64,000 bases of DNA, taken from sequence record NC_070872.1; one strand, 5' to 3'. Position numbers and translations under genes: made by a program. Positions within the stretch are counted from its first letter, which is position 1; every line of letters starts with the position of its first letter. The stretch comes from Escherichia phage U1G. Under the pieces are notes generated by a model that was not told where the DNA came from, searched no databases, and saw only the letters and a program-made list of their open reading frames with translations. Below, piece after piece: positions 113 to 48,080 of this stretch.

Positions 113-127
113 ACATGCTCCGCATGT
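113..127 (+). promoter_or_regulatory. Hairpin acatgc-TCC-gcatgt; candidate N4-type virion-RNAP early promoter
   Basis: 6-bp stem, 3-nt loop (GGA on template strand), followed by tTATGG; same architecture recurs at 949, 1210 and 4980. Confidence 0.4.
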
Positions 128-169
128 TATGGACATGTCGTCCTATCATCAACTATTGGAGCTATCATC

Positions 170-493
170 ATGACTACTACCGCTACTGTACGTATGACCG
201 CAGGAACTTTACTTGGTACTGTTAACTCAGCTGCTACTACTGTTGCAGATACATTCGGTACAGCAACTAAAGCAGTAGGTATGCTTAATTCATATGTAAG
301 TACTATGGCAGAGAAACAAGCCATTCGTACTAAATTAGAAATGCATACCTTTGTTAATAAACTGGCAGAGGAAACAGCTATGACTGAGACTCTGCGTAAG
401 AAAAGTATTGAAGAATTCTGCAAGGATTCAGAGAACGCTCGTATCTATAACGCAGAATATTCCAAAGTAATTGACATCCTGACTAAAGACTAA
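170..493 (+). CDS. hypothetical early protein
   Basis: ORF with GGAG 9 nt upstream of ATG; followed by terminator hairpin. Confidence 0.6.
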   Translation: MTTTATVRMTAGTLLGTVNSAATTVADTFGTATKAVGMLNSYVSTMAEKQAIRTKLEMHTFVNKLAEETAMTETLRKKSIEEFCKDSENARIYNAEYSKVIDILTKD

Positions 494-501
494 GTCACAT
501 A

Positions 502-526
502 GGAGACTCTTCGGAGTCTCCTTTTA
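502..526 (+). terminator. rho-independent terminator
   Basis: ggagactc-TTCG-gagtctcc followed by TTTT. Confidence 0.6.
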
Positions 527-583
527 TAAACATTAGATAGTCAATCAAAAGTAGATAACTATCTACTTTAAGGATAGAAAATT

Positions 584-943
584 ATGACTAAATTTCGTTG
601 TATCAAAGGTTCTGCTGCTGTCCCTGTTGGAACAATTATCGTAGGAGAATTGGAAGGAGAACGTATACGTCTTACCGAAGACTCTACTGTCAGAAATGCT
701 GACAACAATCCTTACTTTGTGGAAGGAGAAATGGTTCCACTAACTGGTTATGTATGGGGATGGGAATCCTGTGAGAGAGAACTAGATAGGGAAGAATTGC
801 TTGAACGCTTTGAAGCTGCTGTAGATGCTGTAAGCAATTACCAATCAGACATACTTAACTATGGTGACTCAGACAAATCATTCGATGAAGTTTACTCAGA
901 GTATAAATCTGCTAAGGCAGAATTGCTTAAACGTTTGTCTTAA
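584..943 (+). CDS. hypothetical early protein
   Basis: ORF; co-directional early array. Confidence 0.6.
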   Translation: MTKFRCIKGSAAVPVGTIIVGELEGERIRLTEDSTVRNADNNPYFVEGEMVPLTGYVWGWESCERELDREELLERFEAAVDAVSNYQSDILNYGDSDKSFDEVYSEYKSAKAELLKRLS

Positions 944-948
944 AAACC

Positions 949-963
949 AGAAGCTCCGCTTCT
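949..963 (+). promoter_or_regulatory. Hairpin agaagc-TCC-gcttct; candidate N4-type virion-RNAP early promoter
   Basis: Template strand reads AGAAGCGGAGCTTCT; preceded by TAAAAACCAG and followed by ATTGG; predicted +1 near 967 (GGAU). Confidence 0.45.
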
Positions 964-996
964 ATTGGATATCATTTAACTATTGGAGATTAAACT

Positions 997-1203
997 ATGT
1001 ATATTCATACTTCCCTGTTTGCAAACAAGAGTAACAATGGTGGATTGCTAGGTAAGATTGATGCTCAGTGGAATCTTTGGTTCTCAGAGATTACTAACGT
1101 AACCGATAGACAGCACTATGTTGCTTGTCATTCATTCCCTGCTAAGCCTACCAAGAAACAAATCCGTAAACTACGTAGAGAGTTTCGCAAAGAAGCTAAT
1201 TAA
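997..1203 (+). CDS. hypothetical early protein
   Basis: ORF with GGAG upstream. Confidence 0.55.
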   Translation: MYIHTSLFANKSNNGGLLGKIDAQWNLWFSEITNVTDRQHYVACHSFPAKPTKKQIRKLRREFRKEAN

Positions 1204-1209
1204 AACCAG

Positions 1210-1224
1210 GGCTGCTCCGCAGCC
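1210..1224 (+). promoter_or_regulatory. Hairpin ggctgc-TCC-gcagcc; candidate N4-type virion-RNAP early promoter
   Basis: Preceded by TAAAACCAG, followed by TTTGGATG; template reads CATCCAAAGGCTGCGGAGCAGCC; predicted +1 near 1228. Confidence 0.45.
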
Positions 1225-1329
1225 TTTGGATGATTTATGCATCCACTAATCATTGAAATCTTAAGTCTTTTCTTGGGTTTAGTCACCGACGAGTTCACCC
1301 GTAAATCACATAAATCTGGAGAGTACAAA

Positions 1330-1713
1330 ATGTCTATTCAAAAATTCACTTTCGGTCAATCTAACGCTGCTACTACTTCTACTGCTAAAACTGATAAGCC
1401 TAAAGCTCAGTTCTGGCTGAACATTGGTTATGTAGCTAATGAAGGCTCTGATGATGAGAAATTCATCTCACTGCCTACTGGTATTCCACTGGATACTCAG
1501 GAACCGCTGCCTACTAATAGCAGCAATGCTGACTTCCGTGCTATGCGTTGTGCACAGAATGACTTGTTGGAACAGTTAATCGAATATGCTCAGAACCTGG
1601 AACCAGGTGAAGAAGGTATCATTAACCTGCAAGTTCAACTTCGTCGTGTGAAAGCAGAGGCTGCTGACATCCCAGCAGACGAGAATAAATATGCTCGTAA
1701 ACTGACTTTCTAA
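1330..1713 (+). CDS. hypothetical early protein (alternative start at 1237)
   Basis: ATG at 1330 has GGAG 7 nt upstream; ATG at 1237 has no SD. Confidence 0.55.
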
Positions 1714-1722
1714 TCAACCACT

Positions 1723-1750
1723 AGACTCCCTTCGGGGAGTCTTTTATTTT
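1723..1750 (+). terminator. rho-independent terminator
   Basis: agactccc-TTCG-gggagtct followed by TTTTATTTTT. Confidence 0.6.
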
Positions 1751-1856
1751 TAACTAGACGATAAGCTATTTCTACTTTTTGAGTATCTTTAGGCGAAGGG
1801 TACTGAAACAGTAACCAGATAGATATAGATTTATATTAGAAGAGGATATGTACTAA

Positions 1857-2156
1857 ATGAGAGCATTTACTGAAGAAGAAGTAAGGAACAAATTCCTGCT
1901 TAATGCTAAAGAAATTGTACGTTACTGGGCAAATACTCCTGATGGTGGTGATACTGCTGAACGCATTGAGGGAGCTATATTCAGCTTACTTAACGTGATT
2001 GATGGTGGTAGTCAATTACCTGCATTTGACCTAGTAGTTAAACCACATCCTGATGACAAAGCTTACTTTGAAGAACTAGGCGAGCCATACTATGAAGATG
2101 GTATGAATATCTGTGATGGTGAATTACATTCTCAATTCATTAACTTTAAGGACTAA
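1857..2156 (+). CDS. hypothetical protein
   Basis: ORF. Confidence 0.55.
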   Translation: MRAFTEEEVRNKFLLNAKEIVRYWANTPDGGDTAERIEGAIFSLLNVIDGGSQLPAFDLVVKPHPDDKAYFEELGEPYYEDGMNICDGELHSQFINFKD

Positions 2157-2158
2157 CT

Positions 2159-2377
2159 ATGCTGGACTTCGTTGCGTTTGTAATACTCTGTTATGTGCTG
2201 TATCGCCTACGTGGTTACATTCTCAATGGAGCCAAGTGGGTAAGAACTAAGCTGGTACTTATCTGTAAGTTACCAGTTGTATTCGTTAAGTGTCTGTTTG
2301 CTTCCATCGTAGCTAAAGAGGTACGTAAGCAACTCTGGGCTAGAGAAGCAGAAGAGTTTGCAAAGAGGAACCAGTGA
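2159..2377 (+). CDS. hypothetical small hydrophobic protein
   Basis: ORF with hydrophobic N-terminal half. Confidence 0.45.
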   Translation: MLDFVAFVILCYVLYRLRGYILNGAKWVRTKLVLICKLPVVFVKCLFASIVAKEVRKQLWAREAEEFAKRNQ

Positions 2378-2570
2378 TATTCACTAACATAGAAGATGCC
2401 ATTGAAGAATGTATCTTTCGTAGATATCACACTGGTGTACAAAAACGACACTATGGTGTTGTACAACTCAATGGCTATCAAATGATTGTAAGAATTGTAC
2501 GTAACAATAAACCTTTTAACTTTATGTGGAGTACCAAACATGCGTAAGTCATTAATCATGGGAACCAAAT

Positions 2571-3044
2571 ATGGACTGGCATGAACTCTTCTCCTACCGT
2601 GAAGGCAAACTCTACTGGAAGGTTAGTAGTGGCAGAGCTAAAAGTGGGGATATTGCTGGAAGTTTCGACACGTACAGTGGATATGTATATGTCCAAGTAA
2701 AATACCGACATCTTAAGGCAGCTACTATAATCTGGGAAATGCACAACGGTAAATTGCCTGACGGTTATATGGTTGACCATATCAATCACATACGAACAGA
2801 TGACCGTTTAGAAAACCTAAGGGCAGTATCTTCCCAAGATAACAATCGTAATAGAAGTAGAGCTTCTAATAATACGTCAGGTGCAACGGGAGTAAGATAT
2901 GAAGCTGGTAAATGGAGAGTTCGTATAAAGATTAATGGTAAGCTAAAGCATTTAGGTAGATTCAACACTTTCGAAGAAGCTGTAGAAGCTAGAGAGTTAG
3001 CTAACAATGAATATGGTTTCCACTCTAATCATGGTAAGGATTAA
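2571..3044 (+). CDS. HNH homing endonuclease with AP2-like DNA-binding domain
   Basis: GKLYWK...DGYMVDHINHIRTDDRLENLR HNH core, then GVRYEAGKWRVRIKINGKLKHLGRFNTFEEA; paralogous to ORFs at 22280 and 29796. Confidence 0.8.
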   Translation: MDWHELFSYREGKLYWKVSSGRAKSGDIAGSFDTYSGYVYVQVKYRHLKAATIIWEMHNGKLPDGYMVDHINHIRTDDRLENLRAVSSQDNNRNRSRASNNTSGATGVRYEAGKWRVRIKINGKLKHLGRFNTFEEAVEARELANNEYGFHSNHGKD

Positions 3045-3238
3045 TATAATGCGTAAATCACTTATTTTAGGTAATAAATCTGACGTACAGAAGATGAAGG
3101 AACGTCTGGCTACTAAGCAACAGACATCTGAACCAGTACGTAAGATTGTTACCTTCAATCATCCTGATGCATACAAATGAACTGGCCTATCTCAATAACC
3201 ATGCTTGCACTGTTAACCTACGGTGCATTAGTAGAATT

Positions 3239-3270
3239 AGGAGTCCTCCAATAGGAGGCTCCTATTTTTT
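3239..3270 (+). terminator. putative rho-independent terminator
   Basis: aggagtcctcc/ggaggctcct imperfect hairpin followed by ATTTTTT. Confidence 0.5.
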
Positions 3271-3313
3271 ATTCTTGAATAGTTAGATATGTATTTAAAT
3301 AGGAGAAATAACC

Positions 3314-3622
3314 TTGAATGAAATAGTATGTATACTTCCTCACCAAGCTAAAGTAGCTGACAGGAATATACGGGTACATTTACCATTCCCATTAAGTAAT
3401 CCATTTGCTCGTAATGAAAGAACCACGGTAGAAGATATAGAGGTAGCTTATGAGGCTTACCTTCGTAATCGTCTTATTAGTGGTGACAAGTTAATTACAG
3501 CAGAGATGGAAAGGATTGCATCCTTTGTAACAGATAGTACAGGTAAACCCGTTGGTTTAATTGGTACTGAATCTGATGTTAACGTTATTCGTAAAATACT
3601 AATGGAGGCATTAAGCCAATGA
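3314..3622 (+). CDS. hypothetical protein (TTG start)
   Basis: ORF; AGGAG 8 nt upstream of TTG. Confidence 0.5.
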   Translation: MNEIVCILPHQAKVADRNIRVHLPFPLSNPFARNERTTVEDIEVAYEAYLRNRLISGDKLITAEMERIASFVTDSTGKPVGLIGTESDVNVIRKILMEALSQ

Positions 3623-3840
3623 TGTACACTAGCGATTATGGTATATGCCCAGTCTGTAAGAAAGGACGTGGAGTTGCCAATCATAAACGTTGTAGTCGTA
3701 TATTGCAGAAGCAACGGAACCAGGAAGAATGGGATAAGTTGTTAAATAATCAGCACAAGGAAGAGAATCAACAGATGGCTGTTAAGGCATCTACTCAGCG
3801 TATTCGTCGTATTAACTATATACAAGGATACCAAAAGTGA
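3619..3840 (+). CDS. hypothetical protein, Cys-rich N-terminus
   Basis: ORF; 4-nt overlap with upstream gene. Confidence 0.5.
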   Translation: MMYTSDYGICPVCKKGRGVANHKRCSRILQKQRNQEEWDKLLNNQHKEENQQMAVKASTQRIRRINYIQGYQK

Positions 3841-4094
3841 TTATTACATTTCCCGTAACTAAATCATTTAACTATATGGGACAAACTATTGAAGTCCCAT
3901 TATGGGTTAAATATGTAGCCTTATTACCTCGTCCTCAGAAGAGTAAGAATGCATCACTAATTGGATTTAGTAGAAAGCCTAAGCTAACTGAAAACTGTAT
4001 TTGGAAGTCTAGTGGCAGACAAGAGGAAATTGGTTTTTGTGACTATGTACCTCAACTAAATACAGTATATCTAACCCTGGAGAAAGTAGAGTGA
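3837..4094 (+). CDS. hypothetical protein
   Basis: ORF; 4-nt overlap coupling. Confidence 0.5.
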   Translation: MIITFPVTKSFNYMGQTIEVPLWVKYVALLPRPQKSKNASLIGFSRKPKLTENCIWKSSGRQEEIGFCDYVPQLNTVYLTLEKVE

Positions 4095-4411
4095 ATAACA
4101 TTGTAGTAGTACATGATTCTACATTTACTGATGTAGATAAGATGATGCGTAATATTGATTATGTATCTCAAACAAGCCAAGCATTCAATGAAGAGTTTAC
4201 TCTGTACTGCAATGCTGAATCTCCACTGGTTCCTATCCTTAAGAAGGCAGGTTTACCATTCTCTACAGAGGACTTCCCGGAAGAACCAGACTATGTAATC
4301 TCATTTATTTATGACTTACATGATGGTTCTGAAACTAGTGAATTAGCTATGAACCAGTGGCGTAGTAAACGTCCTGTGTTCCCTTTTCAGGTACTTAAAC
4401 CAAAGGATTAA
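4091..4411 (+). CDS. hypothetical protein
   Basis: ORF; 4-nt overlap coupling. Confidence 0.5.
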   Translation: MNNIVVVHDSTFTDVDKMMRNIDYVSQTSQAFNEEFTLYCNAESPLVPILKKAGLPFSTEDFPEEPDYVISFIYDLHDGSETSELAMNQWRSKRPVFPFQVLKPKD

Positions 4412-4413
4412 TA

Positions 4414-4596
4414 ATGAGCCAACAATGCAAATGTGGCAAAGGCCATGTATCTCAATGGGATAATAAATGTGGTCATTGCCGAACCAAGAAAGAACAGCGT
4501 GAACATGAGCAAGCTCTTGACTGTGTTTATGAGGTTAAGCCTGAATCACAGGAAGACGCTATTAAATTCTATAAAGAAGTAAGGGGATTAGTGTGA
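4414..4596 (+). CDS. hypothetical Cys-rich (zinc-ribbon-like) protein
   Basis: CKCGKG...CGHC pattern. Confidence 0.45.
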   Translation: MSQQCKCGKGHVSQWDNKCGHCRTKKEQREHEQALDCVYEVKPESQEDAIKFYKEVRGLV

Positions 4597-4973
4597 AAGA
4601 GATCTTTGTATTCGGAAGTAATTTAGCAGGCCGTCATGGTGCTGGTGCAGCGAAAGTTGCATATAAGAAGCACGGTGCTCGTTGGGGCATGGGTGCTGGT
4701 CACTATGGTTGCAGTTATGCAATACCCACCAAAGACCAGAACATTAAAACAATGCCCTTAGAGGCTATTGATATGTTCGTAAAAGTGTTTTTGGGATATG
4801 CAGCAGCACACCCAGAGTGGGACTTTAAAGTAACACGCATTGGTTGTGGGTTAGCTGGATATAAGGATGAGGACATTGCTCCTATGTTTGCTAATGCTAC
4901 AGGCAATGTCATGTTTGACAAAGCCTGGAAGCCCATTCTGGGAGATGACTATATCTACTGGGGAACCTTTTAG
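4593..4973 (+). CDS. hypothetical protein with Gly-rich motif (GTG start)
   Basis: FVFGSNLAGRHGAGAAKVA...GMGAGHYG; AAGGGG upstream of GTG. Confidence 0.5.
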   Translation: MKEIFVFGSNLAGRHGAGAAKVAYKKHGARWGMGAGHYGCSYAIPTKDQNIKTMPLEAIDMFVKVFLGYAAAHPEWDFKVTRIGCGLAGYKDEDIAPMFANATGNVMFDKAWKPILGDDYIYWGTF

Positions 4974-4979
4974 GTAATA

Positions 4980-4994
4980 GCTGCTCCGCAGCTT
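4980..4994 (+). promoter_or_regulatory. Hairpin agctgc-TCC-gcagct; candidate N4-type virion-RNAP early promoter
   Basis: Same stem-TCC-stem plus TTTGG architecture as 949 and 1210; lies just upstream of the RNAP II genes. Confidence 0.4.
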
Positions 4995-5026: not shown

Positions 5027-5845
5027 ATGTACTCATCCATTGAACATCAGAAGCAACTCGAAAAACTATTCAATAAAAATCAGCTCTTGCCTCGCATGAG
5101 GAAGGAATTCGAGGACTCCAAAGAAATTGACTTTAAGGCATTCGCTGCCTATTTGGAAATTGATTATAAGCTGCTCATTGATGCAATGGTGCAGATTGCC
5201 CTACATAAACGTGCTGACATCCAAACTATGATTGGCTCTCTTATGAGCCATTCAGATGATGCTCAGTACATTGCTGACTGTCTGTATAAGATGGCAGAGA
5301 ATGACTGCTTCAACTATGACCCTACCATCGACAAGTTCGGTGTTATCTATGAGATTAGTGAAGATGTTCAGATGGAACTAGAAGCATTCCAGTATCCATT
5401 ACCTATCGTAAGTGCTCCTAAGCCTGTTCTGTGTAACCGTGATACAGGTTACTACGAGAGCAGGGGAAGTATCATCCTCAAGAAGAACCATCATGAGATG
5501 GATGTCTGTCTTGATCATATCAACCGCATGAATAATCAACGTCTAAGCATTAACTGGGACGTTGCTAATTATGTAAAAGACTCTCGTCCTAATATGGATA
5601 AACCCAAAGAGGGTGAAACCCGTCAGGACTATGAGAAACGAGTTAAAGCCTTTGAGAAGTACAGCCGTACTGCTAAGGAAGTAATGGAGTTAGTGACCCA
5701 AGAAGGTAATAACTTCTCACTAGCACATCGTTACGATAAGAGGGGCAGAACCTATGCCTGTGGCTACCATATTAACTATGCAGGTACTTCGTGGAATAAG
5801 GCAGTAGTAGAGTTTGCTGATAAGGAGTTAGTAAATGAAGACTAA
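5027..5845 (+). CDS. phage RNA polymerase II small subunit (N4 gp15-like)
   Basis: 272 aa, directly upstream of the T7-like catalytic subunit; size matches the N4 RNAP II p4 subunit as recalled. Confidence 0.55.
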   Translation: MYSSIEHQKQLEKLFNKNQLLPRMRKEFEDSKEIDFKAFAAYLEIDYKLLIDAMVQIALHKRADIQTMIGSLMSHSDDAQYIADCLYKMAENDCFNYDPTIDKFGVIYEISEDVQMELEAFQYPLPIVSAPKPVLCNRDTGYYESRGSIILKKNHHEMDVCLDHINRMNNQRLSINWDVANYVKDSRPNMDKPKEGETRQDYEKRVKAFEKYSRTAKEVMELVTQEGNNFSLAHRYDKRGRTYACGYHINYAGTSWNKAVVEFADKELVNED

Positions 5846-6042: not shown

Positions 6043-7260
6043 ATGCAACTGTTAACCGCTAAACAATATCTGAAAGTAGACATTGCCAATTCTTATGGCT
6101 TAGATAAAAAGACATGGGATGAGCGTATCTCTTGGTTCGATGAGAACGAAGCTAACCTGCTTAATCTGGTAGATGAAGCTGAAGATTCTGCACTGTTCTT
6201 TGCTGGTGTAAACGCATGGAAAGATATGAAAGCTGGTAAGCCTATTGGTTATGCCGTAGCACTGGATGCTACATCATCAGGCTTACAGTTACTGGCTTGT
6301 CTGACTGGTGACCGTTCTGCTGCTGAATTGTGTAACGTAGTTAATTACATGGGAGAGAATGGTAAGCCATTACGTCGTGATGCTTATACAGTTATCTATC
6401 ACAAGATGCTGGACATCCTTGGTGAAGCATCTCGTATTAAACGTAGTGACACTAAACAGGCAGTTATGACTGCGTTCTATGGTTCAGAAGCTAAGCCTAA
6501 AGAAGTATTCGGTGAAGGTATTCGTCTCAAGACTTTTGAGAATGTAATGGAAACTGTTGCTAGTGGTCCTTGGGCACTTAACAAGTTCTTACTGCAATGT
6601 GGTAACCCGGATGCTAACCGTTACGTATGGATACTGCCTGACAACTACCATGCTGTCATTAAGGTAATGGTTCCTGAAGTTCAGACTGTTAACTTCTTAG
6701 GTAAACCATTCGACATCACTCGTATGGTTCAGGGTACTGAAGAGAAGACTCGTATGCTCTCTGCTAACATCACCCACTCTATTGATGGAATGGTGGTACG
6801 TGAGATGCTACGTCGTTGTAACTTCGATATGAACCAGGTGAACTATATTAAGTCCCTCTGTGAAGGAACTGGTGACTACATGGTAGGTTCTGATGATAAC
6901 TATGAAATGGTTAATACACTGTGGACTAGTTATGAGAAGTCAGGATTCCTGTCTACTCGTATCTTTGATTATCTGGACTCAGAAACAATTGCATTGGTTG
7001 ATACAGATGTAATCATGGCTATGCTCAATACCCTGCCTAAGAAACCATTCCCTGTAATGACTGTACATGACTGCTTCCGTTGTCATCCTAACTACGGTAA
7101 TGACTTACGTCGTCAGTACAATCAGATTCTGTCTGACATTGCTAAGAGTGACCTACTGGGCTTCATCCTGTCTCAGGTACTGGGACAAGAGTTCTCTGCT
7201 GGTAAGCTGGATGACAGCCTCTGGCAAGACATCCTTGAAACAGACTATGCATTAAGTTAG
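6043..7260 (+). CDS. phage RNA polymerase II catalytic subunit, T7-like (N4 gp16-like)
   Basis: LDATSSGLQLLACLTGD (motif A), KQAVMTAFYGS (motif B), VHDCF (motif C). Confidence 0.8.
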   Translation: MQLLTAKQYLKVDIANSYGLDKKTWDERISWFDENEANLLNLVDEAEDSALFFAGVNAWKDMKAGKPIGYAVALDATSSGLQLLACLTGDRSAAELCNVVNYMGENGKPLRRDAYTVIYHKMLDILGEASRIKRSDTKQAVMTAFYGSEAKPKEVFGEGIRLKTFENVMETVASGPWALNKFLLQCGNPDANRYVWILPDNYHAVIKVMVPEVQTVNFLGKPFDITRMVQGTEEKTRMLSANITHSIDGMVVREMLRRCNFDMNQVNYIKSLCEGTGDYMVGSDDNYEMVNTLWTSYEKSGFLSTRIFDYLDSETIALVDTDVIMAMLNTLPKKPFPVMTVHDCFRCHPNYGNDLRRQYNQILSDIAKSDLLGFILSQVLGQEFSAGKLDDSLWQDILETDYALS

Positions 7261-7268
7261 TAAACTAG

Positions 7269-7300
7269 CCTCATTCCTTCGGGAGTGAGGCATATTTTTT
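7269..7300 (+). terminator. rho-independent terminator
   Basis: cctcattcc-TTCG-ggagtgagg followed by TTTTTT. Confidence 0.55.
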
Positions 7301-7317
7301 GCTTGGAGGTAACAACT

Positions 7318-37325: not shown

Positions 37326-40300
37326 TTAGTTAGTAAGGTTGAGCCAAGGGTTCAGGTTATGGGCACGTAAGCCTTGACCGAAGCCCCAGGAGTAACCGAG
37401 ATTGCCTTGTGCAGCAATACTGAATATGTTGTCCTGAATAGGTAAACCAACATTACCAAACATGGTAGGAGTTGGAGCCAATATAGCCATAGCTGCATGT
37501 ACCGGGTTATTACGAATCATGGATACTGCAATTTTTGCAGAACGAATCTTAAAGTTATAGAACCACATTAAACCAACACTTTCCATATATCCACGGAAGC
37601 GACCAGGTAAACGGTCGTAGTTAATGAACTCTTCCGTTACACGCCCCAGTGCTTCTTCACGAGTCTTACCTTTACGCTGAGTCAAATCATCATAGATGAT
37701 TGCTTTAGCAATAAAGTCAGAGTACTCAACCGTCTTCTGGATACCCTGGAAGAGAGCAGTATCCTTAGTGATAAGAGCATAACGTCCAGCGTTGCGTACA
37801 GACTTAGGTAACTTATCAGCCAGTTTATCCATGTATTCGTGAAGTTTACCTTCGGTAATCAGGATGTCATCACGTCCAATACCTGCATCTGCAATTGAAG
37901 AGAACTCACCCGCTTCTAACAGAGGCCAAATACTCATACGCTTATGGCTATCAGTGATGGACTGAATCTCAGCCTTAAGCTTACGAATCTGGTTCGGGTT
38001 AGTAGCTGCACGTAATTCTGCTTCTGCATCTACCTGACGCAGACGAGATTTCAGGTACTGATTAATCTCAGCAGTCTTCTGTGGAATGCTCTTAGCAATG
38101 TTCTTAACAGGTACACCACGAGCAACCATCTGGTAAAGGTTAGCCAGGAAGTTAACAGCAGGTACAACTACTGACTTAACCACAATCAGAGTCTTAGCTT
38201 CTTTAACTAAGTTCTGAACCAAGTTCTCACCACCCATTACATACTTATAGGCACGGTTACCGAAGACACCCAGCATAGCTTTCTTGAAGGTATCCAGTGT
38301 TTCTGGGGACCAACGAGAATTACCAGACCAGGCATCACCAACAGAAGCTGCACGATAACCTAGTGCATCGTTGAGCATGTCACGACGTACCCACAGCTCA
38401 CCCGGGCCAAACAGACTTTCTGCTTTCTGACGAGTTTCACTGTTCATCAGCTTAAGTGCATCAGCAGTTACTGGGTCCAGTTTAGAACCAAGAAGGTTAA
38501 CGTACTGAGACTTATTAGAGACAGACATCTTAATGTCGTTTTCATACATGCTATGCAGGTTCTCAATCAGCATATCGTTGAAACGCTGGGCCTTAGCTTC
38601 CTCCACCTGACGTCCACGCCATACACCAATTGCACGAGCAAGATGGTTCTCACCTTCAATGTGCTTCAGCATATTAGGGTCAATGGATTGCTCGTAAGCA
38701 ACCACATTACCATTGGCATCATATACAGGCAGCAGTGGTTCATTACCACGTTCACCACGAGCCAGTGCTTTAGTAATACGGTCTACAGAAGGCTTGTCAG
38801 TAATACGACCTGCTACCATGGTTCCCATCGTAAAGCCTGTACCAAGGTCTACACCACCAGCAGTATTGCGAACGTTCTGTAGGATACCCTGTGAGAATGG
38901 AGCCTGTGCCTGTACAGGTGCGAAGTAGTAGCTACGTGCTGGACCACGGTTAGCAGAGCTACCCTGATAAGTACCCAGACGTACATAGGATTTTTCAATC
39001 AAATCAGCAAATTGGCTATCTTCAGCAACAATCAGGTTAACACCTTGTTTAGTCTCACCAGGAATATACCCTTTGTACTGGTTCAGGGTTGCACGAGTAT
39101 CCGACTTGGCTTTAGCCATTTCATCTTTACGCTGACCAACCAGGTAAGAGGTAGCAAAGTCCATGCCTTCAGTTTCTGTTTGAGCCAGTGAAGATAACAT
39201 CTCACGGTCAGTCTTACTCATTGCTTCCAGTGCATACAGAGTAATCAGTTTATCCAGTTGAGCTACGTCTACAGTAGAACGTGCAGACTGGCGTTCTCCC
39301 AGCATACGAGAGATTGCTGTAGCATTACGCAGCAGGTTATTACCAACTGTACCGTTAATCATGTACTGAGCCAGTTGCTTAGATTTACGGCTAATCAAAG
39401 GCCAGTTACGTCCTGCTTGTTTCTGCAAATCTGCTTCCAGTTTATTAACCTCACGGTCAACAATCTTCTGGTCAGTCAGCAAGTCACGGATTTCAGCCAG
39501 AGACATAGTGTCACGCAAAACAGCTAGGTCAGTTTTACCCATTCCAGTATGCATTGCTTTCCACTCATCATTAGTCAGCTTACGGCTGAACTTAGATGCG
39601 ATAGTGGTAGGCAAATGTTCACGGAACTGTTGACGGTCAGCCTGTACCTGTGCACGTACTGCTTTAATCAAATCGTATACAGAAGCATTACTCTTAGTAC
39701 GACCAGTTAGGTCATTAACCAGGTCATGGAAAGGTTGCCATACTTTACCCTGGTTCATTGCAGCCATAACACCTTCAGCTACGATTTCACCATTCTTCTC
39801 TGTAGCAATAGCAGCTATTAGTTGTGCAGCATGAGCAGCACCTTTGACCAGTGGGTTCTTGGTATTAGCTGCAACTTCACGAGCACCTTCCAAAGCACGG
39901 GTAGACAGTACATCAATAGAATCCACCAGATACTGGTTAGCACGGTCAATAGCATTACCACTAGGAGTAGCAACGGAATCATAGAAGGATTGTGCATTAA
40001 GACTCGTCTGCATGATTGTCTGAGCCAGTGCATCCATACCTTCCTGTACGTTAGTGGCTTTAGTATCACCTGCTACGCGAGCATTCAGACTAGCCATTGC
40101 AGCAGTACCAATGTTAGTCAGCATTGCATCAACTGTATTACCAGATTGCTTATCTGCTTTCATAACTGGAATGTCAGCCAGTACTTTGCGTACTTCTTCA
40201 CTTACCATTGCCAGACCAACAAAGGTAGGTAGTAAGGAAGAACGACCCTGTGCATCAAACTCAATATTGTTAGCACCCATGATGGTATCGAACTTCTGTT

Positions 40301-43300
40301 GAGCGTAGTAACGGTCAGCAGGGTTAGTACTATCTGGGTCAGCCATGAACGCTTCAACGGTCAGGTTCTTAGTAACATGCGTGTAGTATTCCTGTGCACG
40401 AGCCAAAGCAGCTGGGTTAATAGCAGCCTCAGTAGCCAGAGCAGCAACAATGTTAGTGAAAAGACGTTGTTCCTGCATATTCATAGTGAAGCCATGAGCC
40501 TGAACATCACGAGTTACTTTAGTTGCATTCACTACTGCATCAGAGAACTTACCTTTACGAATTACTTGCTGTACTGGTTCAGAACCAATGTAGTCAGTAA
40601 TCAGTTTATCGAAGGTTTTGCCCAACTCTTCCAGACGAGTATTGTCACCATATGCTTTGTTATGGAACAAAGTAGTATCTTTGGCTACAGCAGCAGTAGG
40701 AGCTTGTCCACGCATTACTACAGCAGAGTTAAACAATAAGCCGGAGAACATATCATCAGCATTAGCTGGTGCTTTCTTACGACCAAATACCAGACGCTTG
40801 ATTGCTTCATATACAGCCTGAACCATTGTTTTCAGTGCAGTAGTTTTCTTCTGCTTACTAATCAGTTCACGGTTAGTTAAGCCCCATGCCATGTACTCAT
40901 TAAGTGCAGCAGCTTTAGCCATTGCTGGTTCAATGAAGCCATTAGACAAGTGACCATTAATGGTATTAAGTGCATCAGCATATGCCTCACGTACTGCCGG
41001 GGATTCATCCTTAACATCCAGAGCACGGAATTGATTCATCAGGTCTTCAATATTCTGTACTGCTTCATTAGGAGTACCTTCGTAGTGAGCCAGTACAGAT
41101 TCAAAAGTAGAAGCATGTACTAATTCATGAACCAGAGTCTCTAAGGAAGGAGTAACTAAGTAGATGGTCTTATCTTCGAAGTTAGTCCAGCCGTATGCAT
41201 TACCAGCTTCAGCAGCTTCAATATCTTCCGGTGCTGGACGAGTAATGTTCTTCTCAATAGCATAGGCATCCAGTTGAGAAGGTGTACCGTAAACAACCTT
41301 GTAGTCTTTAGCAGCAAGGGATTTCTGTACTTCTTTCAGTACTGCTTGCTGTTCCGGAGACATCTCTTTAGCCAGCTTAGAGATAGCAGTATTAGACAAC
41401 AGACGTACACCAGATTTCAGTACACGACCAACCTGTTCCATTGCTGGTACTTCTTTCACTGGTTCTGCTTTAGCAGCACGTACTGCATCACGACGCTTGT
41501 TTAATTCAGCATCAAACAGTTCGTTCAGCTTAGCTACTTGTTGGTCTACGGTCAGACCTTCCAGAGAGATTTTACCGTTGTTCACATAAGGAGCACCAAC
41601 AGCAGCCATCTGGTCAACAGTAGTCTGTACCTGGTTCATTACTTTGTGGCGAATATCCACACCCAGTGCAATGTTACGCAGGTTACGTTCAATCTGTTCA
41701 GCACCAATACGTAACAAGTCATCAGTAGCACCCTCACGTTGGTCATATTCCAGAGCAGATTTAGCGATAGCCTGTTTGGTTTCATCAGACAGTTTGCTGA
41801 AGTCTACGTTCTTCATGAACTTAGAGAAGGAGTCATAAACATTCTTGATAGGGTTACCCTGCCAGGAAGTGTATACAGCCTCGTTAGCTTTACGACTTGC
41901 ATCAGTGATGTTATTGATACCAATGTTCATACCATCAAAGATTTTCAGAGTATTCTTCGGAGCACCCTTCATAGTAGAAAGGGTCTGCATCATCATGCCA
42001 TCACCAGTACCAATGGTCATAAATGGAATACCTGCAACACCTGCCTGTGAAGGAGCATAGATGCTCATTGGCACACGCATACGGTCATCTAAGTTGGTAG
42101 CCAGTACTTGGTTAGCAACATCAGTATTCTCACTACCAGCAATGTAGAAAGTCTGTGAGCCAGTCTCAATCATTGGAGCCAGTGGAGACAATGATTCCTG
42201 GATTTCATTCAGTTCTTTCTGTGTTAAGAAATCACCCTTCTTCCATGTTGGGTCTTTTTCTTTTTCTGCCAGCTTAGCCTGTACTGCTTGTTGGAACATG
42301 TCTTGCAGAACCAGAGACTGAATCTGGGTAGCCTTCTGCAAGTTCTCAGTAGAGTGCATCAGACCTTCGCCAACAGTATTACGAATACCAGTACGCATTG
42401 GTTCAACGAACAAGTGAAGCATGTTTTCTTGCAGGTTCTTCAGGGCATTCCCAGATACGGTAAACTTCTGAGGGTCTAACTTACCAGTCAGAGCACCTTC
42501 TACCTGTTGAATAGACAGTTGACCTTTACGCATAACTGGAACATTACCAGTCAGTGCTTCCATGGACGTAAGGAAAGTATCCAGCATAGCCTGAGCATCA
42601 GCCTCAGACGCAGCCTCCTTACCAAACATTGCCATAGCTGGGGAAATGCTAGGGTCAGCAGCGCGAGCTTGCAGAACATCACTGAAGCGTTCATAGATGG
42701 TGTCAGTAATTGCACTAACCATCTTGCCAGCAATACCACGAGCACCGGAACCATAGATGGTAATAGTCAGTGGGTTTTTAGCGATACCACGTTTCAGGTC
42801 CAAAGTACCGTCTTCATTCAAGTTAAAGTCTTTAATGAACAGGTCCATTAACTTCTGAAGATGATTCATCTGGTTCATAACCGGAACGTTGTTACGGTAA
42901 GTAGTACGTAACTCATTCAGTGCTTGTTGCAGACCATTAGTAGATGCTTCATACAAGTCAACACTATCATCCTGTGAACGATGTTCGTTCATAGTCTTAC
43001 CGGCTTTACCGAAGAACAGACCACCTTTAGCAGTATTCTTAATCCAGTCTGAAGTAAACCTACCACCAGTCATTAATACCATTGCGTTGATTGGTCCGTT
43101 AGTTACACCATCGGCTTCAACGTACAGTGGGGTATTAAAGTTAGCACGGTCATCACTGTTCAGGTAACGGGCATACTCCATCAGAGCCATGAGAGCTACG
43201 AAGGATTTATCGCCACCAAGAGACGTCTTCAGAATATCTACTGCATTGGCAGGTAAGTGACCAGACTTATCAAACTCAACCATCATATCTACAGCAGGTT

Positions 43301-46300
43301 TCAGATTACCTTCCAGAGCTTTAGTCAGCTTTTCAGACATAGCTTCACGGGACATGTTATGTACCTTGATACCTAATGCCTGAGCCAGACCTAACTGGAA
43401 GTCAGAGAATGTTTGGCTGTTTTCATTACTCAAGTCAATAGTAGAGAAGGTTGGCAGAATTGCTTCACGAACCAGTTTACTGGATTGTGGATTGTTCTTA
43501 CCTAACATCTGCATACGACCTACACGGGTCATGTTGTAACCATAGTGAATAGGCGTATCCAGACCATTCTCCTGTTCCTGTAATTGATTGATTACACCAA
43601 ACAAAGAGTCATATGCCATAGACACTGACAGGTTCTTACCTTCCAGTGATTTAGCAGTATTCACGTTCAGCAGTTCAGGATTAAGAGTACCAGCACCCAT
43701 CAGTTCCAGAATGTTGTCACGACCTAATGCTTCATAGAAGTTAACCATCGGCATGTGTACACGGAACTCGGTAGCCTGTTCTGCTTTAAGAGCAGCTTTC
43801 TGCTCTGGGGTATTCTTAACAGCAGGGTTACGTAACTGAGTTTGAGCCACGGAAGGAATATCATCACCAAAGTACATTTTCTCTTCTGGTTCTACGAGAA
43901 CAGCTTCCTCGATAGCAGTAGGGAACTTGTTAATGGCATCGTTATCGTCCAGCTTCTCAATAGTATATAGACCAATAGTCTTATTGGAGTCTGGGTCAAT
44001 CTCAGACACATCAAGCATAGATTCTTTAACTTCACCCATCTCAATGAGAGAAGACAGAATCTCTGTAGCCATTGCCATTGGAATACCTTTGGTATAACCC
44101 AGTGGTGCATTTGGATTACGGTCCAAACCCCAGTAAGATTCAATCTTTTGAGCCAGTGAGTTAGTAGCTTCAACCAGAGTCTGAGCATTCTCGAATTCAG
44201 CCAGAATACCTTCTGGTAACAGAGATGCTTCTACACCAGTAATAGCAGCTACGTCTTTCATATCTTTAACAGCAGCATTCTGTGTAGCAGTCAGTCGCCA
44301 TTGCAGACCAGCAAGTACAGCAGTTTCTAACAACTGGTCATTAAACTTAAAGGTATCCCCATCTTTCTCTACGATGTTAAGTAACTTACCACCTACCCAA
44401 CGGTTAGCTTCAGTACCTTCTGCAAAACGTTTACCTACGTTCTTATTAGCAAGGAACTTAGCCAGACGGTCAGACAAAGTAGTCTTCAGAGTTTCGCCAA
44501 AATCAAATAAGTCCTGATAACGCTTAATCACATCACTTGTGAGAGCGTTATTTTCTTTTTGAGTGAATGCTTCAAAGCGAGCAGCAGAAGACAGTGCTTT
44601 CTTAACATCAGTCAAAGGGGATTCAGAACCAATGGTTCGAGACTTAGATTCTTCCGGCAGAGTAAATGCCTTAAGGAACTGGTTCGGTGTCTTGTCATTG
44701 TTATAGACAGGGAACACTGTTTCCATTTGAGATAGGGGTTTACCACCAACGGTATAGTCTGCTTTCAGTTGAGCCAGAGATACCTCTATCTTCTCAACGT
44801 TATTGGTATTACGCCCAGACGTATCTACACCTATTTGAATCAGTGCATTGTTTGCTTCTACGAATGATTGAACAGTATTGAATTGTTCAGGAGTCAGCTT
44901 CTGATTATCAAACAGTTGCAATGATACAAACGGTTGTTCACTGCCTTTATAGAAGGTAGAGCGAATAGCACCAGTATCTAATGACATATCACGATAACCA
45001 TCATGACCAAATACGTCCGACAAGCTAATGTGGTCACCATTAGAGCCAACAACAGTACCGTCAGCAAAGAGCCAAGGACTCTCTTTACGATCACCATACT
45101 TATTAAGAGTATCTTGAGAAATAGTATTCTCTTTTACATAAGCATCTCTTTCAGATTCAGTAGACTGTACATCAGTATCCTGTTTTTCAGACTGGTTCTC
45201 AGGCTCTTTTACAGACTGTGGTTTAGACTCTTTAATAGTAGATTCTGTTTTAACAGCTTCACTAACAGAGGGTTTAGTCTGTACAGTAGAGGTAACTGGT
45301 TCCTGTTTCATAACAGGAGTTTCATCAACCTGATTCACTGGTTCATTGGTCTGTTGAGACTGAGTGGCATCAAGACCACCTTGACGGAACTCTTTAACTA
45401 CCTGGGCAGCAGGCTTGTCCAGACGTGAATCCAATGGGGTAACTTTCACATGAGAAACATTAAGCTCCGGGTAAGCCGTAGCAAGTGCATTAGCAATATC
45501 AGCTACGGTCTTGGCCTCCAGTCCTACTTGCTGGGCAAACTTAACAGACTTGGTATCATACGGATTGACACCGAGGCCAGTACGACTACGTACCCATTCA
45601 CGGGAAGGAGTAAGAGCCTGATAATGGACAGACTTATTCTTATCCGCATTCCCAGAAATCAGATGCTCATTCAACGCTCCGACCTTATTCTGCATGTGCT
45701 GGGCGAACTTCATAAAGTCGTCGAGATAAGCGGAAGCCAAATCGAAGTTACCAGAGTTGTACGCAGAACGAATGCGTTTAGCATGTTGCAACGCAGAGTA
45801 CTGACCTTCATTAGAACGAGACTCGTCGGTTTTAATTTGTTTACTAACAATATCTTGAGGACGTAAGCCTAATTCTTCTGCTTTAGCGTCGAATTCACGT
45901 GCACCCTGTAACAAGGCAGCAGCCGATTGCAGGGCAGCACGTTGTCTATTCCCCAGTGTAATCTTACCTTCACTTGCATGTTTCAGAACCATGTTCACTG
46001 AATCTGCATCCAGTACTTCTGGAGACATATCAGCAGCCATAGCAATGTTGTTTGCTTGGGTTTGGTTAGCTTCTTCAGTAGCTTTCAGTTTACCCGCTTC
46101 AGCCTGCTCCTGAATCATGGAATGAATGGCACGGAATGCACGAAGTACCTTCGGTGTATTCTGAACGTTAGCCATCAGGCCAGAGAACTGGTCAACAATA
46201 TTAGCAGCATGAGAACCTTGTTCCAGGTTAGCCAGAGCACCTGGGTCACGGTTAATGAAGCTATCCATAGACATGATATTGTCATACATCTGGATTGCAG

Positions 46301-48080
46301 CTTCCATTTGAACGTTAGGGTCTTCAGCAGTATTAACCAGGTCAGCCATCTTCTGAATAGCTTCAACACGGTTAGTGGAACCAGAAACAGCTTCACGGAT
46401 TGCTGGGTTAGCTTGTTCCAGTTCTACTGGGTCAAACTTCATTGCCTGAGTTAAGTCAGCAGCATACTGGGTAGCAGCAGCTTTCTCTTCAGGGGAAATG
46501 TCCATTGCATCTACTGCTTCCTGTACAGTTTCTTGTGCTTGCTCTGCCTGAGCAGTAGCTTCTTGTGCAGCAGCATTAACCGTAGCATCTGATACAGGAG
46601 ATGCTTGTTCATTACGCTTAGCAACTTCTTCACCACGTTGAACCAGAATGTTAGTAATAGGAGAGGCTACTTTTGCTAGTGCCTTACCAGCCAGAGAAGC
46701 ACCAGCCAGGGTAGTACGTACAGCAGGACCAACGGCAGCACCAGCAGCCTTAACAGTTGCACCAGGAGCTTGAGCAACTCCAGCAGAACCAAAGCCGTAC
46801 AGTGCACCAAGACCTGCTTGTTCACCGACACCTTTAAGCAAATCACGCTTAGCATCTACATTACCTTGAATTGCTTTATTCTGTGCAAACTGACTAGTAC
46901 CAGACTGAATACCTTCTTCTACGGTTTCACGGAGCATGTTAGAGCCAGCACCAGCCAGTGAACCTACCTTAAGTGGGTTAAGTTCAAATTTGGATACCAG
47001 TGGACCAGTAGCAGCAGCAACTGGAGCAGTTAATCCAGCAGCAATGATACCTGTTTCAGATGCAGTCTGACGACGTGCTTCTTCAGGAGATAAGCCATCT
47101 TTAATATGTTGTTGGTATACAGGAGATTTGGCAGCCAGTTCACTAAATGGCATTTCCATAATTTCATTAGCAGTCTGTTGGTATGCACCACCTGCTTCCA
47201 TGCCACCAATTGCAATAGCAGGTGCAGCAACACGACCAGCAGACAATGCAACCTGTGCAGGACGAGAACCTAATTCAGCAGCTAAGGTAATACCTTTAAC
47301 AGCTTTATCTCCACCTACCATTACTTTGCCAAGTGCAGATACACCACGGATAAGAGGACCACCAGTAAACAGAGAACCAACACCTTCACTCAGCCCGTCA
47401 GAAGCAGCCATACCATTATCAAGTGTATTAGCAACAGAATCAAAAGCATCACGACCAATGCGAGACAGAGAGGCAACCAAACTGCTCTCCCCATTTTTAA
47501 TGTCTTCTTCATAGAGTTTCTGGTTCTTTTGTGCAGAAATCTGGTTCTGATTCTGAACAACCTTACGGGTAGCATTCAGTGCATCAGACTGTAGGTTGTG
47601 TACACCTTTGTTCAACCAGTCAAGACCGGAAGCAATGGTTGCCCCGGCATTATCATTGACCAGACCTGTGCCAAGAGCAGCAATACCCCCAAGGGTATTA
47701 GCAACACCAAGACCAACACCAGAAAGAGTATCGCCAAATGCTTCTGCGTTAGTACGTTGTTTAGATAAGTCCTGACGTACAGCATCAGCAGCATTAGCTC
47801 GGCTATTAAGAATCTGTAGACCTTGCTCATTACCATATTTATTAAGAATTTCTAATGGGGAGGCTTGAGTGAAATCTGCCTGAAGTGAACCTGGTTCGAA
47901 TGCACCGATTCCAAGATTACCTACACGACCAGTTTGGAGATTGTAAGCATTCTCTGGGGTTAATTGGAAAGGGCTTTGCCCTTGTGCAGCTTGCTTCTGA
48001 GAGGTTGCAGTAGAGACATCGACTTGCTTAGCATTAGTGATGCTGTCTGCGAAACCTGCCAGACGGTCAAATGTTGACAT
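37326..48080 (-). CDS. virion-encapsidated RNA polymerase (giant vRNAP, N4 gp50-like)
   Basis: ~3584-aa ORF at the promoter-distal end of the late operon; size and position match the N4 vRNAP; ATG 48080 preceded by AGGAAA (longest ORF starts TTG 48098). Confidence 0.75.
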   Translation of the reverse strand: MSTFDRLAGFADSITNAKQVDVSTATSQKQAAQGQSPFQLTPENAYNLQTGRVGNLGIGAFEPGSLQADFTQASPLEILNKYGNEQGLQILNSRANAADAVRQDLSKQRTNAEAFGDTLSGVGLGVANTLGGIAALGTGLVNDNAGATIASGLDWLNKGVHNLQSDALNATRKVVQNQNQISAQKNQKLYEEDIKNGESSLVASLSRIGRDAFDSVANTLDNGMAASDGLSEGVGSLFTGGPLIRGVSALGKVMVGGDKAVKGITLAAELGSRPAQVALSAGRVAAPAIAIGGMEAGGAYQQTANEIMEMPFSELAAKSPVYQQHIKDGLSPEEARRQTASETGIIAAGLTAPVAAATGPLVSKFELNPLKVGSLAGAGSNMLRETVEEGIQSGTSQFAQNKAIQGNVDAKRDLLKGVGEQAGLGALYGFGSAGVAQAPGATVKAAGAAVGPAVRTTLAGASLAGKALAKVASPITNILVQRGEEVAKRNEQASPVSDATVNAAAQEATAQAEQAQETVQEAVDAMDISPEEKAAATQYAADLTQAMKFDPVELEQANPAIREAVSGSTNRVEAIQKMADLVNTAEDPNVQMEAAIQMYDNIMSMDSFINRDPGALANLEQGSHAANIVDQFSGLMANVQNTPKVLRAFRAIHSMIQEQAEAGKLKATEEANQTQANNIAMAADMSPEVLDADSVNMVLKHASEGKITLGNRQRAALQSAAALLQGAREFDAKAEELGLRPQDIVSKQIKTDESRSNEGQYSALQHAKRIRSAYNSGNFDLASAYLDDFMKFAQHMQNKVGALNEHLISGNADKNKSVHYQALTPSREWVRSRTGLGVNPYDTKSVKFAQQVGLEAKTVADIANALATAYPELNVSHVKVTPLDSRLDKPAAQVVKEFRQGGLDATQSQQTNEPVNQVDETPVMKQEPVTSTVQTKPSVSEAVKTESTIKESKPQSVKEPENQSEKQDTDVQSTESERDAYVKENTISQDTLNKYGDRKESPWLFADGTVVGSNGDHISLSDVFGHDGYRDMSLDTGAIRSTFYKGSEQPFVSLQLFDNQKLTPEQFNTVQSFVEANNALIQIGVDTSGRNTNNVEKIEVSLAQLKADYTVGGKPLSQMETVFPVYNNDKTPNQFLKAFTLPEESKSRTIGSESPLTDVKKALSSAARFEAFTQKENNALTSDVIKRYQDLFDFGETLKTTLSDRLAKFLANKNVGKRFAEGTEANRWVGGKLLNIVEKDGDTFKFNDQLLETAVLAGLQWRLTATQNAAVKDMKDVAAITGVEASLLPEGILAEFENAQTLVEATNSLAQKIESYWGLDRNPNAPLGYTKGIPMAMATEILSSLIEMGEVKESMLDVSEIDPDSNKTIGLYTIEKLDDNDAINKFPTAIEEAVLVEPEEKMYFGDDIPSVAQTQLRNPAVKNTPEQKAALKAEQATEFRVHMPMVNFYEALGRDNILELMGAGTLNPELLNVNTAKSLEGKNLSVSMAYDSLFGVINQLQEQENGLDTPIHYGYNMTRVGRMQMLGKNNPQSSKLVREAILPTFSTIDLSNENSQTFSDFQLGLAQALGIKVHNMSREAMSEKLTKALEGNLKPAVDMMVEFDKSGHLPANAVDILKTSLGGDKSFVALMALMEYARYLNSDDRANFNTPLYVEADGVTNGPINAMVLMTGGRFTSDWIKNTAKGGLFFGKAGKTMNEHRSQDDSVDLYEASTNGLQQALNELRTTYRNNVPVMNQMNHLQKLMDLFIKDFNLNEDGTLDLKRGIAKNPLTITIYGSGARGIAGKMVSAITDTIYERFSDVLQARAADPSISPAMAMFGKEAASEADAQAMLDTFLTSMEALTGNVPVMRKGQLSIQQVEGALTGKLDPQKFTVSGNALKNLQENMLHLFVEPMRTGIRNTVGEGLMHSTENLQKATQIQSLVLQDMFQQAVQAKLAEKEKDPTWKKGDFLTQKELNEIQESLSPLAPMIETGSQTFYIAGSENTDVANQVLATNLDDRMRVPMSIYAPSQAGVAGIPFMTIGTGDGMMMQTLSTMKGAPKNTLKIFDGMNIGINNITDASRKANEAVYTSWQGNPIKNVYDSFSKFMKNVDFSKLSDETKQAIAKSALEYDQREGATDDLLRIGAEQIERNLRNIALGVDIRHKVMNQVQTTVDQMAAVGAPYVNNGKISLEGLTVDQQVAKLNELFDAELNKRRDAVRAAKAEPVKEVPAMEQVGRVLKSGVRLLSNTAISKLAKEMSPEQQAVLKEVQKSLAAKDYKVVYGTPSQLDAYAIEKNITRPAPEDIEAAEAGNAYGWTNFEDKTIYLVTPSLETLVHELVHASTFESVLAHYEGTPNEAVQNIEDLMNQFRALDVKDESPAVREAYADALNTINGHLSNGFIEPAMAKAAALNEYMAWGLTNRELISKQKKTTALKTMVQAVYEAIKRLVFGRKKAPANADDMFSGLLFNSAVVMRGQAPTAAVAKDTTLFHNKAYGDNTRLEELGKTFDKLITDYIGSEPVQQVIRKGKFSDAVVNATKVTRDVQAHGFTMNMQEQRLFTNIVAALATEAAINPAALARAQEYYTHVTKNLTVEAFMADPDSTNPADRYYAQQKFDTIMGANNIEFDAQGRSSLLPTFVGLAMVSEEVRKVLADIPVMKADKQSGNTVDAMLTNIGTAAMASLNARVAGDTKATNVQEGMDALAQTIMQTSLNAQSFYDSVATPSGNAIDRANQYLVDSIDVLSTRALEGAREVAANTKNPLVKGAAHAAQLIAAIATEKNGEIVAEGVMAAMNQGKVWQPFHDLVNDLTGRTKSNASVYDLIKAVRAQVQADRQQFREHLPTTIASKFSRKLTNDEWKAMHTGMGKTDLAVLRDTMSLAEIRDLLTDQKIVDREVNKLEADLQKQAGRNWPLISRKSKQLAQYMINGTVGNNLLRNATAISRMLGERQSARSTVDVAQLDKLITLYALEAMSKTDREMLSSLAQTETEGMDFATSYLVGQRKDEMAKAKSDTRATLNQYKGYIPGETKQGVNLIVAEDSQFADLIEKSYVRLGTYQGSSANRGPARSYYFAPVQAQAPFSQGILQNVRNTAGGVDLGTGFTMGTMVAGRITDKPSVDRITKALARGERGNEPLLPVYDANGNVVAYEQSIDPNMLKHIEGENHLARAIGVWRGRQVEEAKAQRFNDMLIENLHSMYENDIKMSVSNKSQYVNLLGSKLDPVTADALKLMNSETRQKAESLFGPGELWVRRDMLNDALGYRAASVGDAWSGNSRWSPETLDTFKKAMLGVFGNRAYKYVMGGENLVQNLVKEAKTLIVVKSVVVPAVNFLANLYQMVARGVPVKNIAKSIPQKTAEINQYLKSRLRQVDAEAELRAATNPNQIRKLKAEIQSITDSHKRMSIWPLLEAGEFSSIADAGIGRDDILITEGKLHEYMDKLADKLPKSVRNAGRYALITKDTALFQGIQKTVEYSDFIAKAIIYDDLTQRKGKTREEALGRVTEEFINYDRLPGRFRGYMESVGLMWFYNFKIRSAKIAVSMIRNNPVHAAMAILAPTPTMFGNVGLPIQDNIFSIAAQGNLGYSWGFGQGLRAHNLNPWLNLTN

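Follow-up and report, generated by a model that had tools for sequence, protein, structure and literature searches.

Four N4-type hairpins at the left genome end of Escherichia phage U1G as predicted early promoters of a virion RNA polymerase

Introduction

The left genome end of Escherichia phage U1G (NC_070872.1) carries four short hairpins with the same core, which raises the question of whether they are early promoters read by a virion-encapsidated RNA polymerase (vRNAP) as in phage N4, or terminators, RNA elements or chance palindromes. The stretch analysed here, referred to as the window, is the left 64 kb (64,000 nucleotides, nt) of this phage and all positions are counted from its first letter. 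Overall, the four hairpins are very probably early promoters for the vRNAP, because the phage is N4-like, the motif is rare, it lies at sites orthologous to those of N4, the N4 recognition determinants are present, the stems covary, the promoter contacts of the polymerase are conserved and a precedent was found in phage KP8.

The window belongs to a G7C-like coliphage (Gamaleyavirus, Schitoviridae, Enquatrovirinae) and is N4-like. The region matched 81 phage records, all of which were N4-like coliphages or Gamaleyavirus relatives, with Escherichia phage PGN829.1 (Gamaleyavirus) as the top match at 93.5% identity across 81% of the query. In alignments, the window starts where the linear records of N4, PhAPEC7, SP5M and G7C have their left terminus. 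The early promoters of the N4 vRNAP were reportedly described by Haynes and Rothman-Denes in 1985, Glucksmann et al. in 1992 and Gleghorn et al. in 2008.

Sequence, position and rarity of the four hairpins

The whole window was scanned for perfect hairpins with 3-nt loops and the first 5.4 kb was read directly. Both approaches recovered the four hairpins with GC-ending stems and TCC loops that a sequence-only reading had pointed out, all on the plus strand. P1 (113..132, -18 to +2) consists of the hairpin 113-127 (ACATGC-TCC-GCATGT) followed by TATGG, with a predicted start at G131 before gp1. The second element, Pa (949..968, -18 to +2), is an extra early promoter with the hairpin 949-963 (AGAAGC-TCC-GCTTCT) followed by ATTGG and a predicted start at G967 before an open reading frame (ORF) of the DUF7279 family. 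Pb (1210..1229, -18 to +2) is the orthologue of N4 P2 and has the hairpin 1210-1224 (GGCTGC-TCC-GCAGCC) followed by TTTGG, with a predicted start at G1228 before gp2. Finally, P3 (4979..4998, -18 to +2) has the hairpin 4979-4993 (AGCTGC-TCC-GCAGCT) followed by TTTGG and a predicted start at G4997 before the RNA polymerase II genes gp15 and gp16. The sequence-only reading had placed the first three hairpins and their starts at these same positions, while its fourth hairpin (4980-4994) and fourth start (4998) had to be moved by one base to 4979-4993 and 4997; a G is present at each +1 after this shift.

All four hairpins have a perfect 6-bp stem, a 3-nt loop and the core GC-TCC-GC. The template strand at each site therefore reads 5'-GC GGA GC-3', which corresponds to -12A, -11G, -10G, -9C and -8G with the closing pair -13G:-9C, and the +1 G (template C) lies exactly 8 nt past -8 at positions 131, 967, 1228 and 4997. 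Three of the hairpins had been described as directly following stop codons, and a spacing of 5-6 nt was indeed seen from TAA 941-943, TAA 1201-1203 and TAG 4971-4973. The P1 hairpin has no gene upstream and lies 113 nt from the genome end. The predicted 5' leaders are 39, 30, 9 and 30 nt long ahead of the ATG codons at 170, 997, 1237 and 5027, respectively, and a GGAG-type ribosome-binding site is present in three of the four.

The bare heptamer GCTCCGC was found four times against 2.2 expected on both strands and is not over-represented. Because this count was not significant, the full motif was tested instead, defined by three features: the GCTYCGC core, a stem of 5 bp or longer, and G as the +1 base, 8 nt after -8. 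The full motif occurred four times in 64 kb, always on the plus strand, in intergenic positions and within the first 5 kb, against a mean of 0.021 per window and a maximum of 1 in 1000 first-order Markov simulations. In addition, the template strands folded as single-stranded DNA gave the expected hairpin in the minimum-energy or centroid structure.

Other hairpins of the window were considered and rejected as promoters. In hairpins with TCC or TTC loops elsewhere, for example those at 10359-10371 and 26691-26703, both the core and the G/C closing pair are missing. The hairpin at 74-92 (TAGTGTGC-TCT-GCACACTA) was not counted since its core differs at -10 and its +1 is C; this core, GCTCTGC, differs from the promoter core by a single base and has neither the -10G nor the G start. 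It is formed within a 29-bp insertion (TTAGTGTGCTCTGCACACTAGCCTTCGGC) at 76-104, just 5' of P1, which folds into two small hairpins (74-92 and 92-102, the latter AGCC-TTC-GGCT). The insertion is absent from seven relatives including N4, and a search of 50,697 phage records gave no match to it.

Correspondence with the promoters of phage N4

In N4, three vRNAP start sites (P1, P2 and P3) have been mapped in the genome's leftmost 10%, and are determined by a GC-rich heptamer with its centre at -11 and inverted repeats on both sides (PMC4496689). The promoter hairpin has a stem of 5-7 bp and a 3-nt loop, and the loop-closing pair together with the 5' G and 3' A of the loop is needed for extrusion and stability (PMC4496689). 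The N4 vRNAP recognises A or G at -11, -10G, -8G and +1C, and initiates 8 nt downstream of -8 (PMC4496689).

The first 6 kb of the N4 left end (NC_008720) was scanned in the same way as the window and showed three motifs, 90-102 (GTTGC-TTC-GCAAC) before gp1, 557-573 (AAGAAGC-TCC-GCTTCTT) before gp2 and 4546-4562 (AAGCTGC-TCC-GCAGCTT) before gp15. These fit the mapped P1, P2 and P3 of N4. Comparison of the two genomes showed that window P1 and P3 are the positional orthologues of the N4 hairpins at 90-102 and 4546-4562, respectively. The inner 15 nt of the N4 hairpin at 557-573 recur as the window hairpin at 949-963, and those of the N4 hairpin at 4546-4562 as the one at 4979-4993. Every published N4 recognition determinant, that is the -11 purine, -10G, -8G, +1C, the closing pair and the stem and loop size, was present at all four window sites. 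The likeness to N4 vRNAP early promoters that the sequence-only reading had pointed out is thus borne out by the same motif at orthologous N4 sites, and the alignment with N4 P1-P3 that it had proposed as a check matched window hairpins to the N4 sites before gp1, gp2 and gp15.

Conservation and covariation among relatives

The comparative set was drawn from the left ends of 13 genomes and took in all GCTYCGC heptamers there, chosen by the heptamer alone and not by the hairpin. Inverted repeats of at least 5 bp flanked all 43 cores obtained. The +1 position was G in 42 of the 43 and the +2 position was always G. Among the 24 distinct sequences, the inner five stem pairs were paired in 120 of 120 cells, and compensatory changes were seen in three of the five pairs, one of which was U-A in 12, C-G in 8 and A-U in 4 sequences. 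The covariation score was 0.44 compared to 0.13 in shuffles, none of 500 reaching 0.44, and to 0.08 or less in slid registers. Conserved contact bases combined with stem bases that are free to change if they stay paired is the pattern reported for N4.

Six further genomes carry the same elements, so that the motif is conserved in 19 genomes altogether. The P1 sequence was identical in nine relatives, and the Pa element was also found in SP5M, Moonfish, St11Ph5 and ST4. The number of promoters among relatives ranged from three to four. A candidate at 503-515 of G7C is doubtful as a promoter, with the core present and C at +1. Decayed tandem promoter copies were seen in IME11 at approximately 1545-1560, with GCTCCAC at the Pa site, and in ST4 at approximately 1780-1795, with GCTCCTC and a stem mismatch at the Pb site; these altered copies could reflect real decay or sequencing errors. 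For Klebsiella phage vB_Kpl_K57alpha1.2 (OY979416.1) only the DNA was used. The annotation of this record does not line up with its sequence: late and replication genes are listed over a clearly early region.

The virion RNA polymerase

The vRNAP of the window (37326..48080, minus strand, 3584 aa) is a homologue of N4 gp50 and the predicted reader of the four promoters. Its identity to N4 gp50 was 67% over the whole protein and 71% within the mini-vRNAP domain, and it matched solved N4 structures with an E value of 0. In N4, contacts to the promoter hairpin are made by residues including W129, K114, R119, D901, R904, K849, K850 and K268 (PMC4496689). Eight of nine N4 promoter-contact residues are conserved in the window vRNAP, namely K114, R119, W129, K268, K849, K850, D901 and R904.

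Proposed mechanism of early transcription

Extrusion of the hairpins, dependence on the host single-stranded DNA-binding protein (SSB) and actual initiation at the window sites would follow by analogy with N4. As in N4, the left genome end would enter the cell together with the vRNAP, and negative supercoiling by host gyrase would extrude each repeat as a small cruciform. Host SSB would then melt the non-template hairpin and spare the hairpin on the template strand. The vRNAP is expected to bind this template hairpin (5'-..GC GGA GC..-3') and to read the central loop G (-11), -10G, -9C and -8G. The RNA would begin with GTP opposite the template C located 8 nt past -8, that is at G131, G967, G1228 and G4997, and the predicted transcripts would encode gp1, the 68-aa DUF7279 protein, gp2, and the RNA polymerase II genes gp15 and gp16, respectively. 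Separate conventional terminators at approximately 501-526, 1723-1752, 3241-3271 and 7268-7301 would end the transcription units.

Alternative functions of the hairpins

Several points weigh against the promoter interpretation. A search of the literature gave no transcript 5'-end or in vitro transcription data for this phage or any Gamaleyavirus. The predicted energies of the DNA hairpins are modest (-4 to -8 kcal/mol), with the proven N4 hairpins giving similar values in the same analysis. Within its 36-nt context, the P1 hairpin is not the fold of lowest energy, and the P1 context is the weakest in both the window and N4. The ninth contact residue of the polymerase, K267 in N4, is N in the window vRNAP (residue 1366). 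In the N4 mini-vRNAP, K267 and K268 belong to the beta-intercalating hairpin and melt the base of long promoter stems. Finally, a relaxed terminator scan flagged the hairpin at 4979-4993 on the plus strand, with the tail TTTGGTTATT.

This last point bears on the alternative that survives best, in which the hairpins are intrinsic terminators for ORFs whose ends lie 5-6 nt before three of them, perhaps besides a role as promoters. The position of these three directly after stop codons speaks for this reading, and the scan also flagged 1224-1210 and 964-948 on the minus strand, owing to the A-run of the upstream box that makes them terminator-like in that orientation. However, minus-strand genes are absent from the early region, and the P1 hairpin (113-127) has no upstream gene to terminate. 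The hairpin tails TATGGACA, ATTGGATA and TTTGGATG are broken by GG at a fixed position; neither these nor the tail TTTGGTTA provide the uninterrupted T run that follows the GC-rich stem-loop of an intrinsic terminator, and only 4979-4993 passed the relaxed scan. An invariant loop, an invariant closing pair and a G at fixed distance are not features of terminators.

Terminators of the region look different, with GC-rich stems of 8-10 bp, tetraloops and long T runs. An intrinsic-type terminator after gp1 (501..526, plus strand) has a 9-bp stem, a TTCG loop and a T run, and the matching site of SP5M is annotated as a terminator. Another is located after gp2 (1723..1752, plus strand) and is annotated in PhAPEC7 and SP5M as well. 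A terminator-like hairpin followed by TATTTTTT lies at 3241..3271 (plus strand), and the terminator after gp16 (7268..7301, plus strand) has a 10-bp stem followed by ATATTTTTTG. The earlier argument that weak T tracts speak against simple terminators agrees with the GG-interrupted tails and with this comparison. Overall, a terminator function of the hairpins is unlikely, and a minor dual role as promoter and terminator is conceivable at 4979-4993.

It is more improbable still that the hairpins act in the RNA of read-through transcripts, for instance in processing or stability, instead of serving as DNA promoters. Covariation alone cannot separate a DNA hairpin from an RNA hairpin, and three of the four hairpins would be transcribed by read-through from upstream, but the hairpin at 113-127 has no upstream promoter from which it could be transcribed. 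The conserved bases are exactly those contacted by the vRNAP in N4 DNA, and the downstream GG at fixed distance has no role at the RNA level. An Rfam scan of positions 1-8000 gave no family matching the hairpins. The only hit in this range was a hammerhead ribozyme HH9 match at 5577-5652 inside gp15, which was below threshold (23.4 bits, where the gathering score is 52; E = 0.03) and is most likely due to chance.

Chance palindromes or double-stranded DNA sites of a dimeric protein are effectively refuted since, whatever the unremarkable count of the bare heptamer would allow, the full motif far exceeds its chance expectation on one strand, between genes, within the first 5 kb and across 19 genomes, and its half-sites vary freely while staying complementary, as expected of a structure rather than of a site bound sequence-specifically by a dimer.

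Genes of the early region and the upstream box

The first early gene is a gp1 homologue (170..493, plus strand) with 66% identity to N4 gp1. Downstream of the gp1 terminator lies a 119-aa ORF (584..943, plus strand) assigned to phrog_24403, a family with no assigned function. This ORF does not have its own hairpin promoter; its expression must come from P1 by read-through or from a promoter of another class. The 68-aa ORF (997..1203, plus strand) between the tandem promoters Pa and Pb belongs to DUF7279 (Pfam PF23945, E = 2.3e-20) and is a variable cassette. The RNA polymerase II cofactor gp2 follows at 1237..1713 (plus strand) with 68% identity to N4 gp2 over the full length. Downstream of P3, the RNA polymerase II subunit gp15 (5027..5845, plus strand) has 66% identity to its N4 homologue. 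A 405-aa ORF (6043..7260, plus strand) is the probable gp16 homologue and second RNA polymerase II subunit, judged by position, which is the same as that of N4 gp16 and of the RNA polymerase subunit annotated in relatives. In addition, a 157-aa ORF at 2571-3044 resembles an HNH-type endonuclease as read from its sequence, and is probably a mobile homing-endonuclease insertion. HNH endonuclease ORFs are annotated in the early regions of some relatives, as in G7C gp2.1 and Bas96_0083.

The TAAAA(A)CCAG sequence that had been noted before two of the hairpins is present as TAAAAACCAG at 941-950 and TAAAACCAG at 1201-1209. Its box part is TAAAAACC at 941..948 (plus strand, -26 to -19), which holds the stop codon of ORF 584-943, and TAAAACC at 1201..1207 (plus strand), which holds that of ORF 997-1203. 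In the window and its relatives, a T(A/G)AAA(A)CC box was found at about -27 to -19 before nearly all P2-type promoters, where it includes the stop codon of the preceding ORF, whichever that is. It falls outside the region from -17 to +1 that has been described as conserved in N4.

Promoters as possible boundaries of early gene cassettes

Breakpoints of homology between the window and 18 relatives in Blast alignments clustered at approximately 939, 969-988, 1200-1214, 4970-4972 and 4998-5012, a clustering given here for these sites alone. Different phages carry unrelated small ORFs in the slots between and beside the promoters. The single promoter of PhAPEC7 aligned to both Pa and Pb, and phage KP8 kept both tandem promoters with an unrelated ORF between them. 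The clustering, the PhAPEC7 alignment, the swapped ORF of KP8 and the decayed copies of IME11 and ST4 together suggest that the promoters bound exchangeable cassettes. The hairpin promoters and the T(A/G)AAA(A)CC box may accordingly serve as portable junctions, the small early ORFs being swapped, inserted and lost by recombination between promoter copies; this proposal is tentative and is considered somewhat less probable than its opposite. Any mosaic phage genome would be expected to show breakpoints at conserved intergenic signals. Promoter-stem-loop cassettes have been described in T4-type phages, and the proposed junctions would be their counterpart in the N4 family.

Comparison with known hairpin-promoter phages

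The hairpins are almost certainly early promoters of a known kind; the mechanism is well studied and already annotated in related phages, so that the finding is correct but ordinary. It indicates that the early-transcription mechanism of N4, in which an injected polymerase reads extruded DNA hairpins, carries over essentially unchanged to G7C-like coliphages. The predicted starts at 131, 967, 1228 and 4997 are useful for annotation, for the engineering of early-expression cassettes and for the design of 5'-end mapping. The only mildly new angle is that of promoters as boundaries of exchangeable early gene cassettes, and otherwise no new question is raised.

The window and N4 have in common a template-strand hairpin with a stem of 5-7 bp, a 3-nt G-R-A loop, the -13G:-9C pair, -8G and +1C, located at the left end, directed rightward and placed before gp1, gp2 and gp15. 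The 9-nt leader of gp2 also resembles that of N4, where the start is at 576 and the ATG at 586. The two phages differ in the number of promoters, which is four in the window and three in N4, the extra one (949-963) serving a small ORF that is absent from N4. The P1 loop is TCC in the window and TTC in N4 (template -11 G and A, respectively), and the stems have 6 bp in the window, whereas those of N4 have 5 or 7 bp. The T(A/G)AAA(A)CC box before P2-type promoters is present in the window and was not seen in N4. In the polymerase, the difference lies at position 267, which is K in N4 and N in the window phage.

Klebsiella phage KP8 (MG922974) has four published putative early promoters (PMC6950046), annotated as "early promoter" in GenBank, which are predicted and not mapped. 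It belongs to a different genus (Kaypoctavirus) from that of the window phage. The order of P1, gp1, P2, small ORF, P3, gp2, P4 and RNA polymerase subunit is common to both phages, and since this four-promoter layout is already found in KP8, the fourth promoter of the window is not new. The hairpin and start sequence of Pb (GGCTGCTCCGCAGCCTTTGGA) recurs unchanged in the annotated early promoter P3 of KP8 (GGGCTGCTCCGCAGCCTTTGGA), which contains the entire window sequence 1210-1230. The counterpart of Pa in KP8 is the annotated promoter at 962-983. The ORF between the tandem promoters of KP8 is unrelated to the 68-aa DUF7279 ORF of the window, the stem of KP8 P4 is AAGCAGC, and KP8 has an extra ORF between P4 and the polymerase gene.

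For N4-like phages of Pectobacterium, early promoters with hairpins have likewise been predicted (PMC6027278), and the early starts of Pseudomonas phage LUZ7 have been mapped by ONT-cappable-seq (PMC9163698). LUZ7 belongs to a distant N4-like genus and, unlike the window, has nine early start sites, some of which are without a hairpin; a further difference is that its starts lie 13-14 bp from the hairpin centre. As predicted for the window, its mapped starts follow hairpins whose stem has 4 bp or more and whose 3-nt loop is conserved, with a preference for G and with some early promoters arranged in tandem.

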